A stretch of 64,000 nucleotides of DNA from Phoenicibacter sp. (GTDB lineage: Bacteria > Actinomycetota > Coriobacteriia > Coriobacteriales > Eggerthellaceae): the NCBI GenBank assembly GCA_045641605.1, contig JAZUHG010000017.1:13711-77710 (forward strand). Direction: 5' to 3'. Below are positions 20,659 through 64,000 of this stretch, one piece after another (the stretch's first letter is position 1; each line of letters starts with the position of its first letter). Under the pieces are notes generated by a model, which had not been told where the DNA came from, ran no database searches, and worked only from the letters and a program-made list of their open reading frames with translations. The translations under genes and the position numbers were made by a program.

Positions 20659-20733
<75 letters not shown>

Positions 20734-20838
20734 TTTTTTTCTACTGTATATAATTATCTTTCGATATCTTTACCAATAACCTAAGTTATGTATTTACATC
20801 TTCGCTGTGATTTAGTATTAGAATTTTGATATTAATTT

Positions 20839-20869
20839 AGAAAAAAGGCCACTAAAAATAAGTGGCCTT
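20839..20869 (-). terminator. Rho-independent terminator closing the ycaO / small-ORF unit
   Basis: Minus-strand aaggccact-tattttt-agtggcctt followed by tttttc. 9-bp stem, located 21 nt after the small-ORF stop. Confidence 0.6.
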
Positions 20870-20889
20870 ATAGCGAAATTGAAAAACAA

Positions 20890-20955
20890 TTAGCGGCAAA
20901 TTAATACTACGCCACCATCTTCTGGTTCAATTTCGATGCCGATTCCGTATTTCAT
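20890..20955 (-). CDS. Unannotated 21-codon ORF (MKYGIGIEIEPEDGGVVLICR) immediately downstream of ycaO
   Basis: AAGGGAGG Shine-Dalgarno 4 nt upstream of the ATG, the same spacing as xylB here. It starts 40 nt after the ycaO TAA and is followed by an intrinsic terminator. No homology is known to me, and coding status is unproven. Confidence 0.4.
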   Translation of the reverse strand: MKYGIGIEIEPEDGGVVLICR

Positions 20956-20995
20956 AATACCTCCCTTCGACATGCATTTTATTATAACATAATAA

Positions 20996-22780
20996 TTAAT
21001 TGTTATATTCTGACATAGCCTTAAGAATAAGTTTGGCTTTTCTAAAGGGGAAGAAAAATATTGAGCTTTCCAGCATTTTTCGATAATCTGGATACTCAAG
21101 CTTTAAAATTTTAGATGTATCACTAAACAAAGAATTAATATAAGAAAATGCTTTTTGATTAAATATAAATCTAATATATTCTGAAGCTTCTTTATGGCTT
21201 AAACCATTACTACGAAATTCTAAATATGCCTTCATAGAATCTACTTGCAAACGTGCTTCTTCGGAAACATTATTTAATTTTTGGATAACACAATAAATAT
21301 TTAAAAATTCTCTATATGCTTTTTCAAAATCTTCAAGCATTACATAAAGCATTACGCCAAAGTATTTAGCACCGTATATCGAACCACCCATTGAAACTTT
21401 TAGGTTTTTACATGGCGGCAAGTAAGAAAACAGTGAATTCATAAATAACTGGTCAGAATAATAATTAAAAAGTTCTAGAATAATTTTTGCCGAATTTTTA
21501 CTAATATTTGAAATATCCAAAAATAAATTTTTTACATAGTCTCTCTTGATCAAATTTAACAGATCTGTTTCGTTGTTGTTACAAATTTCTGACATTCCTG
21601 GGATAATTACATGGAATGCTGGAAATCCAAAACATGTTGCGTCTCTAACTAAAATCTGGTAATTAAATTTTTCAATCTTTTTAACCAAAACATTTAGCAT
21701 ATCTGAATTGCTTGAATATTTTGATTCTAGTTTGTTTAAGGAAAACTTACCAGATGATTTTAAAATTTCTAATGGATAAATTCCGCTTCCATCTACAAAT
21801 GCATTGTTTATTGATTCTTTTGAAATTTTTGCATCCATAGTTTCAAATTTTGCTGTTTTTGAAAAAGTTTCTATTTGCCTTCCTTGTGTAGATTCTGTGA
21901 AAACTCTTTCGATAGCAATCTCGCAACATGGGTGACACCCAAAATTTACGCCCAAAGTTCCAGTTTTAGAATTTACAATTATCAATGCTGCAACAGGTCA
22001 AACACCACCTAACGAAGCATCTTTTAAATATACATTTATGCCCTCTACGGTTTTTAACTTCTTTCAGGTGCTATATAAATTTGGATATTTTTTAATATAT
22101 GATTCGGGAATGTCTGGTAAAGACAGTCTTTTTTGAATAACCAATCGGTGTACATATCTTTCAATAATCTCTGAAATTCCTTCAACAAGAGCCTCGTCTT
22201 TAGAATTCCCGGCAGCCATTCCATTACTTCAATATGTTATATCTGTTAAATATCTTGGTAAGTAATCTACCTTATTATTCGAAATATTATAATAGGGAAG
22301 ACATAAGTATTTATTTCTTTTGTTTAGGGCAGAATATTTGTTGTAACAATATTTATCAAATCACTCGCTCTTTTCTTTAATACTTAAGGACGATTTTTTA
22401 TTATACTTAAAGAGCAAATTTATAACGTCAGATCTTTGAGATATAATTTCTTTAGATGTTAAAAATTTTTCATCCTTTGAAATTAGAGGCCGTAAATCAT
22501 GTCCGTAATAATTAAAAATGTTGAAAAGTTTATGGTTTTGTAAACGTTCAAAAAATTCCCCGTACGCACTTGCCAACGCTAAATCTTTTGTAGCACCTTT
22601 ACCATTAGTCCCTATATTTGTATCTTTTATGAAAAGTCTTAACGAATAAGTTGAAATTTCACTAGCAGAATTCCATTGCTCTTCAACTTCTATATGTAGT
22701 TTTTTTAAAATAGACTTTAAATACGTAACAGTATCTTTTGGATTTCTATCTTTATATCTATTTTCTAAAAACGAATCCAT
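20996..22780 (-). CDS. ycaO: YcaO-family protein, E. coli YcaO type (YcaO domain plus C-terminal TPR-like domain)
   Basis: ORFs 22361..22780 and 20996..21985 are in frame. I translated the gap by hand and it is open with 4 TGA. 'TNGKGATKDLALASAYGEFFERLQN', 'YWSNGMAAGNSKDEALVEGISEIIERY' and 'SLGGVWPVAALI...FGCHP...IERVFTESTQGR' align closely with E. coli YcaO as I recall it. Confidence 0.85.
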
Positions 22781-22842
22781 GGATCCTCCAGACTTTTAAT
22801 TAAAAAAATTAATATATGAGTTATATTTTACTGCGACTTTAC

Positions 22843-22851
22843 ATTGTAGCA
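22843..22851 (-). promoter_or_regulatory. Possible extended -10 (TGcTACAAT) upstream of ycaO
   Basis: The minus strand reads ...gaaaaTGcTACAATgtaaag..., about 60 nt upstream of the ycaO ATG. The ATG itself has a GGAGG SD. Confidence 0.35.
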
Positions 22852-22938
22852 TTTTCTCATCACCTTAATTAAAGCTTTGATTATTTATTATTAAATAAAC
22901 TAGTCTTATGTTAAAATTTTAAATAGATTAAAGGACGT

Positions 22939-28896: not shown

Positions 28897-29259
28897 GGGG
28901 GCGACCGGTTTCGACATATTACGTGACTGTTGCTCTGCAGGTTGTGGTCTCCTGATCCACGTTAAATAACAGGTAAGTCAAATTAATTGACAAAACTACT
29001 AACGGCCGTTTGGCCATGGCAGCATAGTATAAGTCTGCCTGCCTCTCTACCTGACTCCTTCTAGGGTAGACTAGGTATCGTTTTTTAGATGGATGCTGCG
29101 TCTGGTGTAGCTGGTATACAGACGCCTAAGATTAAACCCGCACTTGTGCAATTTGTGTGTCAACCACGTTTTTGCACTCGTATTAATTGTTGACTAAGCT
29201 TGTAGAGGGGTTTCAGGTATGTAGTATGGACCGGAGTTCGATTCTCCGCGCCTCCACCA
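28897..29259 (+). ncRNA. ssrA: tmRNA (SsrA)
   Basis: 5' gggggcg pairs with the 3' cgcctcc-a-cca (G3-U wobble). tRNA-like T-arm 'ggagttcgattctcc'. The internal tag frame ends ...GGC CGT TTG GCC ATG GCA GCA TAG (29004-29027), giving the likely tag (A)DKTTNGRLAMAA. Confidence 0.9.
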
Positions 29260-29427: not shown

Positions 29428-31332
29428 TTAAATAATAAATAAAAGAAAATACTCTGAGATGTTTTCGAGATTCCAAGAGCTGATGAGGTCTTGGGCGCGG
29501 AGGACCGAAGTTCTTATGACGCGGATGGCGGTGATGCGGAATTTGTCGGTGGTTTCGGTGTATTCGGAAAGACCGATGTTGAGGTCGATTGCGTCTATCT
29601 TTTTGCCTTGGCTGTTTTTGAAATAAACCTTGTTACGAAGGCTGTTGCCAATGTAGCCGATGATAATTCCTGTAACAATTCCTATAACAATTGTAATTGC
29701 TTCGAAGAAAAGGATTCCAAGAATGATAGCTAATAGAGGAAGTGCTATCGCGATTCCGAAGAGCCAGTGACGAGTACGATCATAGATCGAATTAAAGTTG
29801 GCGAATTCGTTTACTTCGTCAGTTAGAAGTGAGTGCCAAGATAAATAACTTGACATAAATTCATATGGTCTGGCGTTTGCGTAATTTTCGATATCTGATA
29901 GGCGAAGTAATGGGTTACCACAAGCTATTTCTGTGAACAAGAACTTAATTGTTCGTTTATCAATGATATTAATATTTCTTGCCTTGTATGGGTCTTTAGC
30001 AAGTTGTGCTTTCTTTAGACGAATTTCAAAATCTCCAGATGCCATTCTTTTAATGCGGATGTGTTTGTGCTCGTTAAGTGAGAGCAGACTTACAACTACA
30101 TCGTGGGCGAATTCGTGGTTTCAATTTTTTAGTCGTACCAACATGCAAGGGTGCATTTCTTTTAACTTTTTGTTGGAAAGTGCACCAACCAAGAATCTTC
30201 TTCTGTATATAATTAAAATTATTAAGCAAGCGCCAAGTGCCAAGAAGCAAAATACAGAGAAAATTATTGGGAGTAACAATTTGTTAACTGCATCTGTTCT
30301 GTAATCGCGTCAAACGGATTCTTCTTTTAATATTGTTGTAAGTTTTGTTTGGTTACGTTGGCTAATATCGCTTCCCATATCTAGGTTTGTAAGCCAAGAA
30401 GTGGGGAATACTATACGAAGTTCTGCATCCGAATTGCCAGGTACAACTTCGTTATTTAGAGAAACGATGCCTGCAGGGTCTAGGTCAACTATTCCAGAAG
30501 TCGAGCCGTGACCTCAAGCATAAATATTTCTTTCGGTAATGCTTTCGGGGTTTGAGCCTTCGTTGGCGCCTTTTGCAAGTGGGTTTACTATGCCTTCGCT
30601 GCCTACTGGAATTGTGACTCTAACGTTCACATCGTAGGAGTCCATCATCCATGTATCTTGGCAATATGCCCATTGGAAATCTGCAACGTCTTTAAATATT
30701 GTTGCAGCGCGCTCGATTGTATAGTTCATGCTAATTATTGCTTTGGTGCTTGCCCATGCATTTACATCATTTGTGCCGGTCATGGCTACCATTATTTCAT
30801 AACATTGTTGAGATGTTAGCTGGTCTTGGTTAATAAGTTCGGAATAAAGACACATCTTTTTGTCTTCGGCGTTGTATGTAAATGTTGGAGCAGTGGGACT
30901 GTCTTCGCCTTTCCACTTTGATAAATAGGTAGCGTTTTCAAAACCTCTTCAAGTCCCAATTACTGTATCAGCGTTTGAAAGAATTGCGATCTGTGCATTG
31001 CCTAGACTTATGTCGCTTTCTTTTGGAAGATATTTATAGCCTCAAACCAGGGGAGAAAGCTTAGGTGCAATGTTTGGGCTTTGAGTTGTGCCTGTTTTAT
31101 ATGTTTTGGCTTTTTCTATGAATGGAGTTACATCGATGATCTTTTGCTCTGTGATATTGATTGAGCCATCGGTGCTAATTGCTGCGTTGATTGTCGATTT
31201 TCAAGAAAGAGTTTCGGCTGTTTTTAGAGCAAAGGCTTTTTTTGGAGCAATTAAGCACATACTAAATGCTAAAACTATGCACATAAATGCTTTTGTAAGT
31301 TTGATAGCTATGTTAATCTTCGTATTTTTCAT
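29428..31332 (-). CDS. DUF2207-like membrane protein (signal peptide, extracellular domain, TM segments)
   Basis: Hand translation gives one 634-aa frame with 6 TGA. N-terminal signal 'MKNTKINIAIKLTKAFMCIVLAFSMCLIAP', the block 'YAWGHGSTSGIVDL...AELRIVFPTSW' typical of DUF2207, a TM 'LLLPIIFSVFCFLALGACLIILIIY', and C-terminal TMs. Confidence 0.55.
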
Positions 31333-33907
31333 AAAATACAGGAACTGTCATGTCAAAGTCCGAAGCATCTCATTCGCTCCTTCTTTGACGTAAATAAATC
31401 CCTCCAAAGTGAGAATTATAGCAGTATAGACCCTCCATATTGCAGCATTGTTGTATACCTTTATCTACGCTGCCTTTTTTGTCATTAATGTCTATGACCA
31501 CATTAGGGCTATTATGCATTGTTGCAAACTTTTGAATGATGTATGTTTCTTCTTTCGCGCATTTTTCAATCGTGCTTTCTCATTCTTTTTGATTCATTTC
31601 ATAACCAACAAAAACATTTTGTGCGTCTCTTGAGCTAATCGGTTTAACTAAATAGCTGTCTTTATTATCTATGTAAATTTTTAGATCAGCTAAGTCTTTT
31701 GATAGGAATTTTGTTTCTGGAATGTGCAAGCGAATAAATTCTTTTTCAGACTCATTAAGTAATTTTTGAGTTTGTGGCATGTGAAGAACTGCAAATAACT
31801 GTTTATCGTGAACTATTTGACTGTTAAACCAATCAATAGGACAAACTTTATCGTTTAAACTTGCATCAATCAATGCCACCACGCCTTCGGAGTCTTTAAA
31901 CGGGAGCAAATCATCCAGGGTAATGCGCTTGTAGACTGCATCAATCTTTTTGCCTTCTTTTGTTGTTAGATTATTTTCATCGAAGCGAAGGTCGCGGATG
32001 TCGCAAATTTCACAATCTAATCCGTTATTGATAAAGCTCTCTTTAAAAGGGCCGAAGTCGGGGAGCTGGCAGTTATCCAAGAGGTCAACGATGGCTACCG
32101 TGAATTTGTCAGCATCATTATTAGTATTGTTTGCCCATTGTTTATAGATCTTTTCGAATTCTTTAACTCATGGCGTATAAACATCCATGGGGCTGAAGTT
32201 AATATTTGAATCTTTTAATTTTTTGTATGGAAGGGTTTTGGAAATTTCTTCGTTGGCGTATGTGACCTTGCTCATAGCTGCACTGCCACCTGTATTGAAC
32301 TCGCAAAACTCAAATTCCCCAGTTGCATCATCGAAGAATATATCAAACCTTGCAACAGGGAAGTCTTGGCTATATTTAGGTTTGAAGTGAATTAATTTTT
32401 TACAGAATTCATCTCAAGTGAACAGTTTTTGATAATCCTTATTATTCCAATATTCTTTGTAGACTTTTTCAAGAATTCCGCACGTTTTTTCAACCAATAA
32501 CTTAAATTGAATTTGATTATTAACGTCAAATACTTTTGAAAAATAGCCAGTCTTAGAAATTTTACCCATATATGCAACTTTTGAATTCTTTCTTCTTTCT
32601 GCGTGTTGGTTAATGTCTTCTTTGCTATTTTTAAAAGCTTGTTCTTGGATTTTTGTGAATTTATTAGTGTCACTAATTGGTTTGAATTCTCCAGGAACTT
32701 CTTTAAAGTCTCACGCAAGTTCGTCTTTTAAGCATTTTTTATTATTTACCAGATCAATAATGGGTTGCATGTATTTATATTGAGTCTTTGTTGCCAATTC
32801 TATTAAGCTTAAAAGTTGTTCATGGGTGTTTTGTCCGTATACGTTTGCATCCCAGCCATTATTTTGAAGATTTTGCCCTGCCTCTTTATAGTCTGCAAAA
32901 CTAATGCTTCCATATTTTTCCCACAGTTCGTCCAAAACTTCTTTGTTGTAAAACAAGTTTTGAATTAGCTCGAAATATGCAAGTGTGTATTCTTTCGGCA
33001 TGCTGTCTGCCGGCCTAATTTCAATCTTATTTTTAAGGCGCACATCGTAAAAGCACATCGAAAGTTCATGCTTGATTTTGTCTTCGTCGCTTTTTAGATC
33101 ATGAGGTGTATAGATTTTTGGTAAGTTGTTAATTACTTCAGCATAACTTTTATAAGAGAAGTCATTTTCAAAAACTTCAGGCACCGAAGTACATCTATCC
33201 GGGTCTGCGTTATTTCAAATTTGTCAACGTGCCATACGCTTTGCGACAGGGATTCCACTTGGACTAGTTTTGTTAACACCAATTTTGAATCTCTCAAAAA
33301 TAGGGGAGTTGTCTAGCAAGAAATAGATTAACGGACTAATAGCCGTTGCAACTTTCATAATTCTCTTGCAGTTATCTTCGTTTGAGAAGTCCAAAGTAAG
33401 TTGTGTTGCAGCACTGCACCTCATCATACAAAAACCTTGTGTTCCAACGTTTTTGAAGTTTGAATCCATGCATCTGTATCTCATTTTTGGAATAATTGGC
33501 ACTTCCAAAGCACACAAGTCAGGCCTGTATCCTATATTGGCAAGGTGATAGCTGTGTTTGGCCAAAACTTCGTTGACTTCGTCTAGAAATTTGTTGTAAA
33601 TAGCTTCAATTTCTTCTATGTTTTTACATTTTTTGATGGAAATTTCAAATTGAGCACCAGGCTCAATGCTTATGTCTGCATCTTTTCTTTGAAGCCCAAC
33701 TAAATAGCTTTTGCCATTATAATTTTCATAGATCTTCTCATCATAATGGGGCGAAAGTTCTTCGATTATTTCTTGAACACCGGCTTTTGAGTCTTCGTAA
33801 GAATAGAATACAGATTTACCGCTTTCATCCAGGATGAAGTGTTCAATTTCTGCCCCTAAAAATTGATCAGAGGTTTCACCATTTTTTATGAATTCCTCTA
33901 TTTCCAT
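31307..33907 (-). CDS. Fusion protein: glutamate--cysteine ligase (plant/proteobacterial GCS type) plus a glutathionylspermidine-synthetase-like ATP-grasp domain
   Basis: I translated 31307-33907 codon by codon: one open frame of 866 aa with 7 TGA. N-terminal half: 'ISIEPGAQFEIS', 'IPKMRYRCM', 'GFCMMRCSAATQLTLDF', 'FYDVRLKNKIEIRPAD'. C-terminal half: 'ARFDIFFDDATGEFEFCEFNTGGSAAMS', 'LVKPISSRDAQNVFVG', 'YIIQKF', 'MEGLYCYNSHFGGIYLR'. The stop overlaps the DUF2207 start by 26 nt. Confidence 0.7.
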
Positions 33908-59566: not shown

Positions 59567-62500
59567 ATGCATATCAATACTAAATTTTCTAATAAGTGTC
59601 TATTGTTTGCGATTGTTACTGTGTTTTCTATTATAGTATTCGAATTATTCTTTGTTCTGTTTACTAATAATTTCGCTATTGCTAATTCAAATGAAACCCT
59701 GGTTTATTCTCAAAATAATGACCCAGACCCTTATTATGGCACAAAGGAATATTGAAACGAGCATTTTGGTCCTCATGAAGATAAATACATAGATAAAAAT
59801 ATACCTGCAGGAACGACTATAGGTAATGCTTCGGGTGGTGAAGTTGCCACTTATTTTATAGGTGACGATATTACGATTTCGTCAACAAATCCCAGCCAGC
59901 CTTGTCTTATTATTGCCGGTAATGTGGATTTATGTTTTGAAGATGGTCATAGTTTAACATTAAAAGTTGCTGATAGCGTAAATGGTGTTGGTAGTGCGCC
60001 AGATATCCTTCTTACAAAAGGCAATTCGCTTCATATTGTAGGCAAAGGGGATTTAAAAATTCAAGGTAGTTCTGTCAATGTCGATAAATCTTATGTAAAA
60101 GGACAGGATGGAACTCAAGGATCTTGATATACACAGTATTATAAGTATGTTGTTTTGGGTTTCCCAGGTCGCGGCGGAAATGGTTCAGGTGGTGTTGGAG
60201 CATTAATAGGAACTTATGGTGGCGCCGGTGGTGCTGGTGGTTATATAACTAATCCTAAAGATGATCGTGAAGAGATGGTTGAACAAGGCCATTATGGAAG
60301 TGGTACTGCGGTTCAACCTGGTGGCACTGGTGAAGCATCTGCAGTTTCTGGGGATTTGTCTATATCTGGCAATGTAGCGCTATCTTTAACTCCCGGGACA
60401 GTAAGATATACAAACTCACTAAATAATGAAGCCCTAAATGGTGTTTATGGGCCCAGAAACAGACAATATACTGGTAAAACATTTGGGATTTGAGATTGCT
60501 ATAATTTTATTGGATCAAATGGCGGAGGAGGGCAAGGCGGTTTAGGCTTTGCTGGCGCAATTTTTGGCTCTGGAGGTTCTGGCGGAGCAGGAGGTGGCTG
60601 CGGCGGAGAAAATGGTTTTGATTATACTAATTATCAAAATTATTGTTATCCAGATGGTGGTGGTGGTGGAGCTGGTGTTGGTTCCGCTAGCACTTATGGT
60701 GGAACCGCCTTTCCACGCAAGTCAGATTCTGACCAATTCCCTGATGGCGCAAAAGATGGAGAAAATTATGTTGCTGGGACCAGTACTGCTCCAGGTAACG
60801 GAGGGAGGCCTTCTGGTGGTGGAGGCAGATATCAAAATGGTTACGGCGTAGAAGGTGGGAAAGGCGGATTTGCTGCTGTTGCTGGTTTAGCAGGAAATTG
60901 TTTTGCTATTCCTGGTTTATTGCCAAAAGTAGATAAGGTTTCCAGTTTTATTTCTGATAGAAATGGTCAAGAGAGTGACCGCTATTTGGTTTATCCGCAA
61001 GATGAGTGTAAAATTGTTCTTGATGGTAGCTTACAAGATGATGAATATATTTATAGCTATTCTGGTCAACCTATTTTTCCTGATTATAAGGTTATACATG
61101 TGCCAACAGGTAATATTATAGATGATGATTGTTTTTTTGAGGTTAAATGAGAGAATAATGACAAACCCGGCATGGCAAAACTAATTATCAAAGGCAATTC
61201 TTCTTTTAGCACCACACAGGCAACTATTGGCCAGTCGATGTTTACTGCTTCTGGGGTAATAGAAGTTCAATTCAGAATCGCTAATATTTTTGATGTAAAA
61301 AATTTAACTGTCGCATCTAAAGTTTATAATGGTGAGCCAATTTCGTATCAGGGTGAACCATACATTGTCGATGAAAAGCAAAGACCAATAACAGACTTAA
61401 CAATTGATGATGTTGTTTTTGAATATAGTAAATTTAATTCTGAATTAAATATATACGAAAAAATTAATTACGTCCCAAAAGATGTAGGTGATTATTCTTT
61501 GATCTTTTCTATTAATAAAAAAGGCTATGAATTTTATGTGTCATTAACCTCAATTAAGTTTTCTATTACTATTGCTGACATAACTATTAATAAAGATGCC
61601 TCCGAAGGACTTAAGATTGAAAAAGTTTTTGATGGGACAATTGATGCTGGAAATGAAAATTTGTCCGGTTCATTAACCTTTGACAATATCGCAGAGGCGG
61701 ATAAAAATAAACTTGAAATTTTTCCAATAATTTCTAAGTTTACATCTGAAGACGTTCATGATGAAAAAATTGTTTGTAATCTAAGAATTAAATGTACCGA
61801 CGATAAGGACTTACTGAAGAATTATAATTTAGTAGATGATACTACGGAGATTCAGTATCGTATTTCGCAAAGAACTATTAATGTAGATTCTGTCAGCGCA
61901 AAAAATCGTACATATATAGCAGATAACTTTAATGTAGAGGTGGATGATGTTAAATTTTCAAATTTAGTTGAAGGTGTAAGTTTTGATCGAGATTCTGAGT
62001 GGATTATCGAAGAAGGAAAAATTACTGATGAAAATGTTGATCCTGGCCGTCACAATTGTTCCTGCAAAATTACTAATAAGTATGAAAATTATACTTTTTC
62101 AGACGGTCAAACAATTACGTATAACTTTATCGTTAATATTTATGGTGAGCAAGTTGCACACCCAGTGGCTTCAGAAACAGAATTTTATTACAATGGAAAA
62201 AATCAAGTTTATGATGTAAAAGCATATCCAGGATTGTATACAGTTGAAGGAAATACAGGCACGGAACCTGGCACTTATACGGCTATATATAAGCTGGCAG
62301 AAGGAAAGAATTGAGCTGATGTTGAAGAAAGTAAAAAATTTGATCCTTATGAAATTACATGGGAGATTAAAAAGCATAAGCCTATTGTATTTGATAATAA
62401 TTTTATTACACAAGCTGTTGCCGATAAAGATCAAGTTGAATTTGAATATAAAATTAATGACAAACCTGAGGATATGAGTATCTCTAATGTAAATTTGGGT

Positions 62501-64000
62501 ATTGAAGAAGGTGAAGAATATATTGATAGTTATCAATTGAGTGAGGATGGTACTAAGTTACTATATTCTTTGTCAAGCGAGGCCAAGCCTAATAGTTCTA
62601 TAAAGTTTAAAATTTCTCTCCAGTCTGACTTTTATGATGATTCAATTATCGAGGTTCAAGTTAATTTAGTAGATAAATATAATGTTAGTTTAACTGGTAT
62701 TTATTTTTCCGACAAGTGTTATGATAAACAACCAATTTCTTTTGAGGGCAATGTATGTGCACTTGTTACAGATATGTATGCTATAAATAAGGATATATCT
62801 GATAAAGTTAAAAATGACCTCATTTTTGATTACTATCGTCTTGTAGGCGCTGAATATATCCATATTGGTGACGAGGCTCCAAAGGATTGTGGGTCTTATA
62901 AAGCTATTGCTAAAATTAAAGAAAGCAATAGTTTTGGGGCTGGTATGTCTAGTGAGTTAAAATTTGAAATCAAGTTCAATAGTCAAGATATAATTGTTTT
63001 TGATGATGTAACTGAATCTCGTTGTTATGCAATAGAAGATTTAGACTATGTTGGAAATTTGAATATTATAGATAGTATTCCAGAAGGTGAAAATTATCAA
63101 GTTGTTATTAAAGAGATTGATGATAAACAAGCTTTTATTGACACAATTAGCATTGATCATGATGGTGAAGTGCATATTAAATTTAATCAAGGCTCATTAA
63201 AGCCGGATAAATCAATATCTGTTATTGTCAGTGTTTTGTTTGATAATTATTTATCACAGCCGTTAACATATACTTTAAATTTGGAACCGAAAAAAACTTT
63301 AAGTATTGGTGGCATTACAATATATGACAAGGGCGAGTATGACGGAGATTATGTGCCCTGAGATGGAAAATTTTATATCAAGGATGGAGATACGGACTTG
63401 ACTGATGAGTTGCTTGAACAAAAACATGTAAAATTAATTTACAGAGATCATGATTCTGACCGAACATACGATGAGCCACAAGTTAATGCAGGAATTTATG
63501 ATATAGAAATTCGCATTGTTGACTGAGATCAACTTTATACAGGAAGTGCGATTTATACTGCATCAATTGGCAGAAAAACTATTAATGTTGAATCAGAAGA
63601 GCCGTATGTTGGCGAAATTACGAAAGTGTATGATGCAACAACTTCACTGCCAACTGGTTTTACTGATTCACTGGAAATTGATGAAAGAGATATTCTTGAT
63701 AAAGATAAAGGTAAGGTGTTTGCAAAGTTTAATGCGTCTCAGTTTAGTTCCCCAGATGTTTACGAAGACAATGTTGATTGCGATACAGAACTCTATGGTG
63801 AAGCTTCAAATAACTATAAGCTTAACTTTGAAAAGGTTATTGCAAAATATAGTATCACTCCAAAATCATTAAATGTAAAAGAAGCAACTGCTGAAGCTAT
63901 TAATAGAGACTATGATGCCGATAATTATAAAATAGATATTAAAGTTGACATTGACGGTGTGATAGAAGGCCATGAGCCTAGGTATAGCTCGATTGCTCTC
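59567..64000 (+). CDS. Giant cell-surface protein (3' partial): N-terminal anchor/signal, glycine-rich module, then repeated YDG/MBG-like beta-rich domains
   Basis: A single frame is open from ATG 59567 (AAAGGAG SD) to the window end, with 7 TGA. Hydrophobic N-terminus 'CLLFAIVTVFSIIVFELFFVLF'. Gly-rich 60150-60900. Recurrent '...K(V/C)Y(D/N)G.P...' units such as 'SKVYNGEPISY', 'EKVFDGTIDAG', 'DKCYDKQPISF', 'TKVYDATTSLP'. Confidence 0.7.

Follow-up and report, generated by a model that had tools for sequence, protein, structure and literature searches.

The window analysed here, a 64-kb stretch of contig JAZUHG010000017.1, carries on its reverse strand a ycaO gene (22780..20996) and, after a 40-nt spacer, a 21-codon open reading frame (ORF; 20955..20890), referred to below as the micro-ORF. 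The two lie together directly 3' of a tRNA-Asn(GTT) gene (20659..20733, forward strand), and we consider them here as a candidate pair of a modifying enzyme and its peptide substrate. Across the whole window TGA is read as a sense codon (Trp) and never as a stop: of the 47 large ORFs listed, about 29 contain in-frame TGA and none ends in it. The ycaO gene itself spans 594 codons, four of them TGA, as the original prediction had described it, and one TGG, and closes with TAA (20998-20996). Because TGA is a sense codon throughout (translation table 4), the gene is intact, and its reading as a pseudogene on account of the TGAs is ruled out by this window-wide recoding together with a dN/dS of 0.12-0.20 against its relatives, at dS values of up to about 1.6.

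A search of 5.8 billion protein clusters returned only three close relatives of this YcaO, located on contigs L005, L001 and L002 at 98%, 81% and 60% identity, respectively. In all three, a micro-ORF follows downstream on the same strand, making four of four loci with the window included, and L002 carries two copies with different tails, L002a and L002b. Upstream of the window ycaO, a Shine-Dalgarno (SD) GGAGG (22785..22789) stands 4 nt ahead of the ATG, and the element TGCTACAAT (22851..22843), a motif read from the sequence, is a putative extended -10 promoter, also present in L005 and, as the variant TGATACAAT, in L001; a promoter element at this place had been proposed before.

The micro-ORF encodes the 21-aa peptide MKYGIGIEIEPEDGGVVLICR and is preceded by the SD AAGGGAGG (20967..20960, reverse strand), with 4 nt between GGAGG and ATG, the same spacing as in ycaO, clpP and the xylulokinase-like gene, which bears out the earlier claim of a strong SD placed as in bona fide genes. 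The arrangement GGAGG, 3-8 nt and ATG occurs only 10 times in the 64 kb on both strands; five of these cases open long genes, and the only intergenic orphan belongs to the micro-ORF. In the relatives, the SD is kept as AAGGAGG or AAGGAGA. The 40-nt spacer contains a further extended -10, TGTTATAAT (20989..20981, reverse strand), which precedes the ATG of the micro-ORF by about 26 nt; in an alignment of the five copies, it is identical in the window, L005, L001 and L002b and reads TGATATAGT in L002a. The clean intrinsic terminator that had been noted after the micro-ORF (20836..20869, reverse strand) begins 20 nt past its stop and consists of a stem-loop (20869..20845) with a 9-bp GC-rich stem and a 7-nt loop, followed by a U-run (dG -14.3 kcal/mol, z = -4.9 vs shuffles). 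Equivalent hairpins with compensatory stem changes are found in L001, L002b and L005.

The original prediction had joined these elements into a single co-transcribed unit of promoter, ycaO, micro-ORF and terminator. The elements themselves are present, and no terminator separates ycaO from the micro-ORF, such that read-through is possible; the simple single unit, in contrast, does not hold, since the extended -10 conserved in the spacer evidently provides the peptide gene with its own promoter. Thus, the probable layout is a promoter and ycaO, followed by a second promoter, SD, micro-ORF and terminator. With its own promoter, a strong SD and a terminator, the peptide would be expected in excess over the enzyme.

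The five copies of the micro-ORF share ATG, SD, frame, length and stop, with the TAA (20890..20892 in the window) at the same aligned position. They encode MKYGIGIEIEPEDGGVVLICR in the window, MKYGIGIEIEPEDGGVILICR in L005, MKYGIDIEIETGDGGVVCVTA in L001, MKYGIDIEIEENGGPTYIQI in L002a and MKYGIDVEIEEDGGVILITK in L002b. Codons 1-15 (MKYGIGIEIEPEDGG, 20911..20955) form the conserved acidic part, a putative leader with the consensus MKYGI(D/G)(I/V)EIE-x-(D/N)GG, whose terminal [D/N]GG is invariant in all five copies. Over codons 2-10, pN is 0.00-0.09 with pS up to 1.0, and a minimal history requires six synonymous and two conservative non-synonymous changes (binomial P = 8e-4), a pattern that points to strong purifying selection at the protein level. 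Codons 16-21 (20893..20910; VVLICR in the window), the putative core, behave in the opposite manner: their pN of 0.37-0.79 equals or exceeds pS in all diverged pairs and lies several-fold above that of ycaO. The tails VVLICR, VILICR, VVCVTA, VILITK and PTYIQI are nevertheless all six residues long, and their residues remain beta-branched or hydrophobic; four of the five tails have Cys or Thr as their fifth residue.

This selection pattern along the codons bears on whether the micro-ORF is a gene at all. A chance frame within a non-coding element that is itself conserved, for instance a 3' UTR or a small RNA (sRNA) with the terminator at its end, could account for a 21-codon open frame, which by itself is unremarkable in this composition (P about 0.23), and the promoter-to-terminator unit of roughly 110 nt is of sRNA-like size. 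We nevertheless regard this explanation as very improbable: the changes in codons 2-10 are mostly synonymous (pN 0.05), the start, SD, frame, length and stop are retained in every copy, and an Rfam scan of the islet matched the tRNA only, with no family over the micro-ORF unit. The weight for the micro-ORF as a gene is carried by its SD and, above all, by its conservation, and the contrast between its codons indicates that it is neither a chance ORF nor a purely RNA-level element.

A conserved front followed by a hypervariable tail matches, at the level of the sequence, the recognition segment and core of precursors of ribosomally synthesized peptides with post-translational modifications (RiPPs). 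The leader-core layout proposed in the original prediction thus stands, as do the purifying selection on the small ORF and its in-frame retention, at an unchanged position, wherever a close relative has the YcaO, both of which had been put forward as checks. Two features by which a precursor pair is recognized, a small ORF adjacent to and conserved with the enzyme and a conserved leader with a variable core, are accordingly found here, the first in all four close-clade loci and on the same strand. Pfam and NCBIfam scans of four micro-ORF peptides matched no peptide family. Three other identities were considered and set aside. A classical double-glycine leader for a C39/PCAT exporter has no such transporter nearby, and its -4 position is acidic and not hydrophobic; a ThiS/MoaD-like sulfur carrier, suggested by the Gly-Gly, would have 14 or 15 residues, too few for a beta-grasp fold; and an attenuator-type leader peptide does not fit an ORF located at the 3' end, immediately ahead of a terminator and with nothing downstream on that strand.

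The enzyme belongs to the YcaO superfamily, with PF02624 matched at 164.4 bits over residues 59-397 (cut-off 25.7) and TIGR00702 at 140.8 bits (cut-off 75.65). Among the NCBIfam models, it matches best the E. coli-type equivalog NF040716 (the uL16-type or "S12 accessory factor" YcaO), aligned over residues 10-564, at 260.3 bits against a cut-off of 700, and the scores for the SagD-family model TIGR03604 (57.7 bits vs 219.25) and for TIGR03266 (methan_mark_1; 58.6 bits vs 365) likewise stay below their thresholds. The best match in the PDB is E. coli YcaO, 4q84 (E = 2.7e-45). An AlphaFold2 model made for P0001, a relative 81% identical to the window YcaO, from an alignment of 98 sequences has a predicted local distance difference test score of 93.9; from about residue 404 onward, that is, over its C-terminal 190 residues, it consists of helices only. 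Foldseek superimposes this model over its full length on E. coli YcaO 4q84-86 (template modelling [TM] score 0.75-0.79, about 605 columns), whereas other YcaO structures match its core only (TM 0.35-0.46). None of the residues S71, E75, E78, R79, E204, E207, R208, R292 and E296 varies among 99 homologues, and all of them align with the nucleotide-binding motifs of 4q84; following the assignment of Dunbar et al. 2014, we take them to be ATP/Mg2+ ligands. Given the fold match, these invariant residues and the dN/dS noted above, the window YcaO is predicted to combine the YcaO ATP-binding domain with a C-terminal all-helical domain resembling tetratricopeptide repeats (TPR), the E. coli-type architecture, and is very probably an active enzyme. 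This agrees with its earlier placement in the TPR-tailed E. coli class, outside the thiazole/oxazole-modified microcin (TOMM) enzymes. PADLOC returned no match for the YcaO, which is not part of a known defence system.

For E. coli-class enzymes, the original prediction had regarded the substrate as unresolved, a statement that is now outdated: E. coli YcaO thioamidates Met82 of the ribosomal protein uL16 (Rice et al. 2026, PMC13063428). It does so without partner genes, on a folded substrate and with a preference for an X-Gly site, and no small ORF follows ycaO in E. coli (PMC13063428). The uL16-type YcaOs are strongly acidic (pI 4.4), complementing the basic uL16, and the few non-acidic members of the similarity group of E. 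coli YcaO (EcYcaO) occupy RiPP-like gene contexts (Rice et al., Fig. S33, PMC13063428). The window enzyme shares with E. coli YcaO the ATP-binding domain, the C-terminal helical TPR-like domain (about 150-190 residues), the residues of the nucleotide-binding motifs, invariant among the 99 homologues, and a stand-alone position without an E1-like protein or RiPP recognition element (RRE), TfuA or dehydrogenase as a neighbour. It differs in showing only 22-23% identity in the structural alignment and in lying on an accessory low-GC islet with a conserved small ORF after it. To judge from its NF040716 score of 260 vs 700 bits and its pI of 9.0 against 4.4, it is not an orthologue of E. coli YcaO.

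The window YcaO has a pI of 9.02 and a net charge of +15, and its relatives P0001 and P0002 have pIs of 9.25 and 9.26. The micro-ORF peptides, in turn, are acidic, with net charges of -2 to -3 beside YcaOs of pI 9.0-9.3, such that enzyme and peptide would form a sign-inverted mirror of the pair of acidic EcYcaO and basic uL16. Part of this basicity may come from the low-GC composition; even so, the charge of the enzyme is opposite in sign to what a uL16 enzyme needs and complementary to the peptide.

These comparisons also bear on the possibility that the YcaO modifies a folded cellular protein, uL16 or another, with the micro-ORF encoding either a separate small protein or one that regulates the enzyme or serves as its adaptor. 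A full-length fold like that of an enzyme whose substrate is folded and which needs no partner genes is what such a role would lead one to expect, and an islet without processing and export genes fits it as well. We consider it unlikely, though, given that the enzyme fails the uL16-type equivalog and lacks the acidity that marks uL16-type enzymes; in addition, a ribosome-modifying housekeeping enzyme would be oddly placed on an accessory islet of low GC that a related metagenome-assembled genome (MAG) lacks, and the strict synteny and the leader/core selection pattern would be left unexplained.

Other YcaO systems resemble the window enzyme in part. The amidine-forming YcaOs of bottromycin, streptamidine and klebsazolicin are single enzymes that act directly on a short peptide, at a site that can be near the terminus, and ItfB is described in the literature as a single YcaO that acts on a short peptide and forms a C-terminal backbone amidine. 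All four share with the window enzyme the absence of an E1/RRE partner, but they have no C-terminal domain of the E. coli type (the Foldseek TM with YcaOs other than that of E. coli is 0.35-0.46, as above), and their clusters carry more tailoring, protease and export genes. With the TOMM cyclodehydratases (SagD, McbD, PatD/LynD/TruD) it has in common the YcaO domain and ATP-dependent amide activation, and Cys or Thr occurs in most tails of the window clade. A PxPxP-type C-terminal motif is a feature of TOMM cyclodehydratases, whereas the window YcaO ends in ...KAMSEYNN without such a motif, has neither an E1-like/Ocin-ThiF partner nor a dehydrogenase nearby and stays below the TIGR03604 threshold. 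The YcaOs of methanogen McrA thioglycine and of the TfuA-YcaO thioamitide and thiovarsolin systems offer a further parallel, namely thioamidation without a side-chain nucleophile, often at or next to Gly, in some cases without TfuA; unlike those, the window YcaO does not reach the TIGR03266 cut-off and has no TfuA or ThiS-like gene near it.

The closest parallels to the gene arrangement come from a wider survey of 20 further loci with full-length YcaO homologues at 32-42% identity. Several of them have one or two small same-strand ORFs after the YcaO, with an acidic leader and a hydrophobic tail, of 54 and 59 aa in Streptococcus salivarius, 51 and 62 aa in Eubacterium multiforme, 54 and 62 aa in L004, 56 aa on a Rep3 plasmid contig, 43 and 45 aa with ELEVVEEM leaders in L030, and 46 aa in a Tissierellia MAG. 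Such clusters often add an M50-like peptidase, DUF3267, an ABC transporter, ThiF or a radical SAM enzyme, and on a twin-YcaO contig of a TGA=Trp organism each enzyme is paired with a 72-78-aa ORF. The Bacillota clusters among these loci (for example S. salivarius LR822051, E. multiforme DSM 20694, the Rep3 contig and L030) have YcaOs 32-37% identical to that of the window over the full length, with the small ORFs immediately downstream; their peptides, however, are 43-62 aa long, with LLTDEEL- or ELEVVEEM-type leaders and Gly/Ala-rich tails, against 20-21 aa in the window clade, and they add the peptidase, DUF3267, the transporter and sometimes ThiF plus the radical SAM enzyme, where the window cassette has nothing more. 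They are the group of "non-acidic members with RiPP context" of Rice et al. (Fig. S33, PMC13063428), and a literature search found no description of the product of any of them. In this sense, a YcaO followed by a peptide gene appears to be the general arrangement of the non-acidic branch, of which the window cassette would be the most reduced form. The condition under which the original prediction was to fall, orthologues consistently without an adjacent small ORF, did not come about, as the distant homologues too commonly have precursor-like ORFs after them.

Some of these loci deserve description in their own right. L021 (4001-9845; S. salivarius LR822051.1), L004 and L007 (E. multiforme) share a conserved, apparently uncharacterised cluster around the E. 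coli-like YcaO, with two precursor-like ORFs whose leader is of the LLTDEE type, whose junction reads D-x-T-S and whose hydrophobic tail is rich in Ala and Gly; it also holds genes for proteins of 338 and 127 aa, for DUF3267 and for an ABC transporter. In L026/L027 (1-7800), the YcaO, a 56-aa precursor-like ORF with an MGLLTNDEL leader and an M50-like peptidase stand beside a Rep3 replication gene and a phage-type integrase; given the Rep3 neighbour, this branch of YcaO clusters can be plasmid-borne. In L030 (1-7839), a YcaO of this type belongs to a more complete RiPP cluster: its flanking genes are a 44-aa membrane ORF and the 43- and 45-aa precursors, and the cluster further includes an ABC transporter, ThiF, a B12-binding radical SAM enzyme and an M50-like peptidase. 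L003 (1535-8024; Logan SRR9866653) has two basic YcaO paralogues, P0012 and P0004, on one TGA=Trp contig, each adjoining an opposite-strand 72-78-aa ORF that starts MS(E/D)KW(E/N)V(V/I)FKEL, besides ATP-grasp TupA-like and glycosyltransferase genes.

The window derives from a UGA=Trp Eggerthellaceae-like actinobacterium, as indicated by its Der GTPase, which is 76% identical to a Coriobacteriia MAG copy and 66% to the Ellagibacter copy, together with the window-wide use of TGA for Trp. The host, a gut actinobacterium, is thereby a member of an already published lineage, the UGA=Trp Eggerthellaceae (Equivita/Gorillivita) of Parks et al. 2026 (PMC13462651). The islet with ycaO and the micro-ORF (about 20740-22938) has a GC content of 25-30% against about 39% in its neighbours and the host, and the tRNA-Asn marks its edge. 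In the related MAG, the order tig-clpP-clpX-valS-der-TPK-tRNA-Asn is kept, with unrelated genes and no YcaO after the tRNA, and in L005 all that comes after the cassette is a 3'-terminal stretch of the tRNA, about 14 nt long, and a DegV pseudogene (edge compared over window 20740-22938, L005 2290-2360 and L031 9567-9641). Because of the low GC, the tRNA-Asn edge and the other genes in place of a YcaO in the related MAG, the cassette is an accessory islet that was probably transferred. No integrase was seen at the islet. The more distant relatives L002 and L003 lie on contigs of 25-29% GC that likewise read TGA as Trp, suggestive of an exchange between organisms with this recoded stop in common; the donor, too, probably read TGA as Trp.

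The genes within about 8 kb of ycaO encode TPK, DegV, HPF, ArgRS, an A24 peptidase, RsmI, TlyA and a cyclophilin. In the same range there is no E1/Ocin-ThiF, RRE partner, TfuA, ThiS-like gene or dehydrogenase, and none for a protease, exporter, immunity or sulfur delivery, in agreement with the earlier statement that E1-like, TfuA, dehydrogenase and exporter genes are missing; nor is a receptor or regulator found within about 8 kb of the micro-ORF. These neighbours also speak to a reading of the micro-ORF product as an unmodified peptide, pheromone- or bacteriocin-like and with strain-specific tails, whose linkage to ycaO would reflect shared mobility on the islet. The micro-ORF has its own promoter and terminator, the hypervariable C-terminal hexapeptide recalls pherotype diversification, and L002b sits 360 nt further on from ycaO with a promoter, SD and terminator of its own. 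We rate this as rather improbable, and below the folded-protein explanation: the linkage has been retained across a dS of about 1.6, the surroundings offer no receptor, regulator or exporter, the acidic N-terminus does not resemble a signal peptide, and related YcaOs regularly have precursor-like ORFs after them.

Taken together, we favour on balance, and with moderate confidence, a minimal, horizontally acquired two-gene RiPP-like cassette of enzyme and precursor. The peptide encoded by the micro-ORF would be the substrate of the YcaO, and the bond activated, the nucleophile, the site and the role of the product can be outlined as a proposal. A precursor of 20-21 residues, expressed from its own extended -10, SD and terminator, would accumulate in excess over the enzyme, and the basic TPR-tailed YcaO would bind its acidic N-terminal consensus segment. 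ATP-dependent O-phosphorylation could then take place on a backbone amide at or next to the invariant Gly-Gly, or within the six-residue tail, leading to a thioamide or to an azoline at the Cys or Thr of tail position 5; an amidine or an ATP-dependent cleavage after the Gly-Gly are further possible outcomes. Among these we favour the thioamide by analogy, given the enzyme's homology with E. coli YcaO, whose preferred site is X-Gly and which works without a partner.

Several observations weigh against this proposal. The main weakness is the lack, within the range given above, of any protease, exporter, immunity or sulfur-delivery gene, and with such an islet content secretion of a product would depend on functions of the host. 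E. coli YcaO, the closest characterised relative, acts on a folded protein and not on a peptide, and Gln instead of Cys or Thr at tail position 5 of L002a weakens the azoline outcome. The comparative evidence, moreover, comes from only three independent lineages and five ORF copies, with GTDB, JGI metagenomes and IMG/VR scanned for the peptide pattern. The back-translated pattern had no match in GTDB genomes, a loosened pattern had none in IMG/VR, a YcaO search of which also returned nothing, and a JGI metagenome match to the loosened pattern was a chance one, antisense within an ABC-transporter gene. As these scans gave no further true copy, the family is rare, and the cassette is a rare (three lineages), compact form of a YcaO-dependent RiPP-like pair.

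More tentatively, the cassette may represent a new minimal class of RiPPs, with the shortest YcaO precursor yet, a TPR-tailed YcaO of E. coli architecture, an islet moving among UGA=Trp gut bacteria and a uL16-type scaffold that also makes small modified peptides. If so, its precursors would consist of a 14-15-residue acidic leader ending in Gly-Gly and a six-residue hypervariable core, processed without RRE, E1, TfuA, protease or exporter; the islet would be shared by Eggerthellaceae and low-GC Mollicutes-like organisms, and the strain-specific tails would suggest signalling or antagonism. Much of the backbone chemistry of ribosomal natural products comes from YcaO enzymes, a main source of it, and their E. 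coli-type branch has only just been assigned a function, the thioamidation of uL16; the cassette presents the same scaffold with an apparent, genetically encoded peptide substrate. As a two-gene system it is directly testable, its natural six-residue tail variants are at hand for structure-activity work, and it could reveal by what means the TPR-tailed branch, lacking a recognition domain, recognizes a substrate and which chemistry it carries out on peptides. Besides, it illustrates gene transfer confined to organisms that share a recoded stop codon.

Elsewhere in the window, four further features were recorded. An 864-aa fusion of GCS2 glutamate-cysteine-ligase-like and circularly permuted ATP-grasp domains (31313-33907, reverse strand) is encoded at 35% GC, below the host average, with seven TGA=Trp codons, and adjoins the gene for a 659-aa DUF2207 membrane protein (29428-31407, reverse strand), which also contains seven. 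An ORF of >1476 aa with a hydrophobic N-terminus, 34.7% GC and seven TGA=Trp codons runs off the end of the window (59567-64000, forward strand), and a tmRNA gene (28897-29259, forward strand) has the predicted tag peptide DKTTNGRLAMAA.

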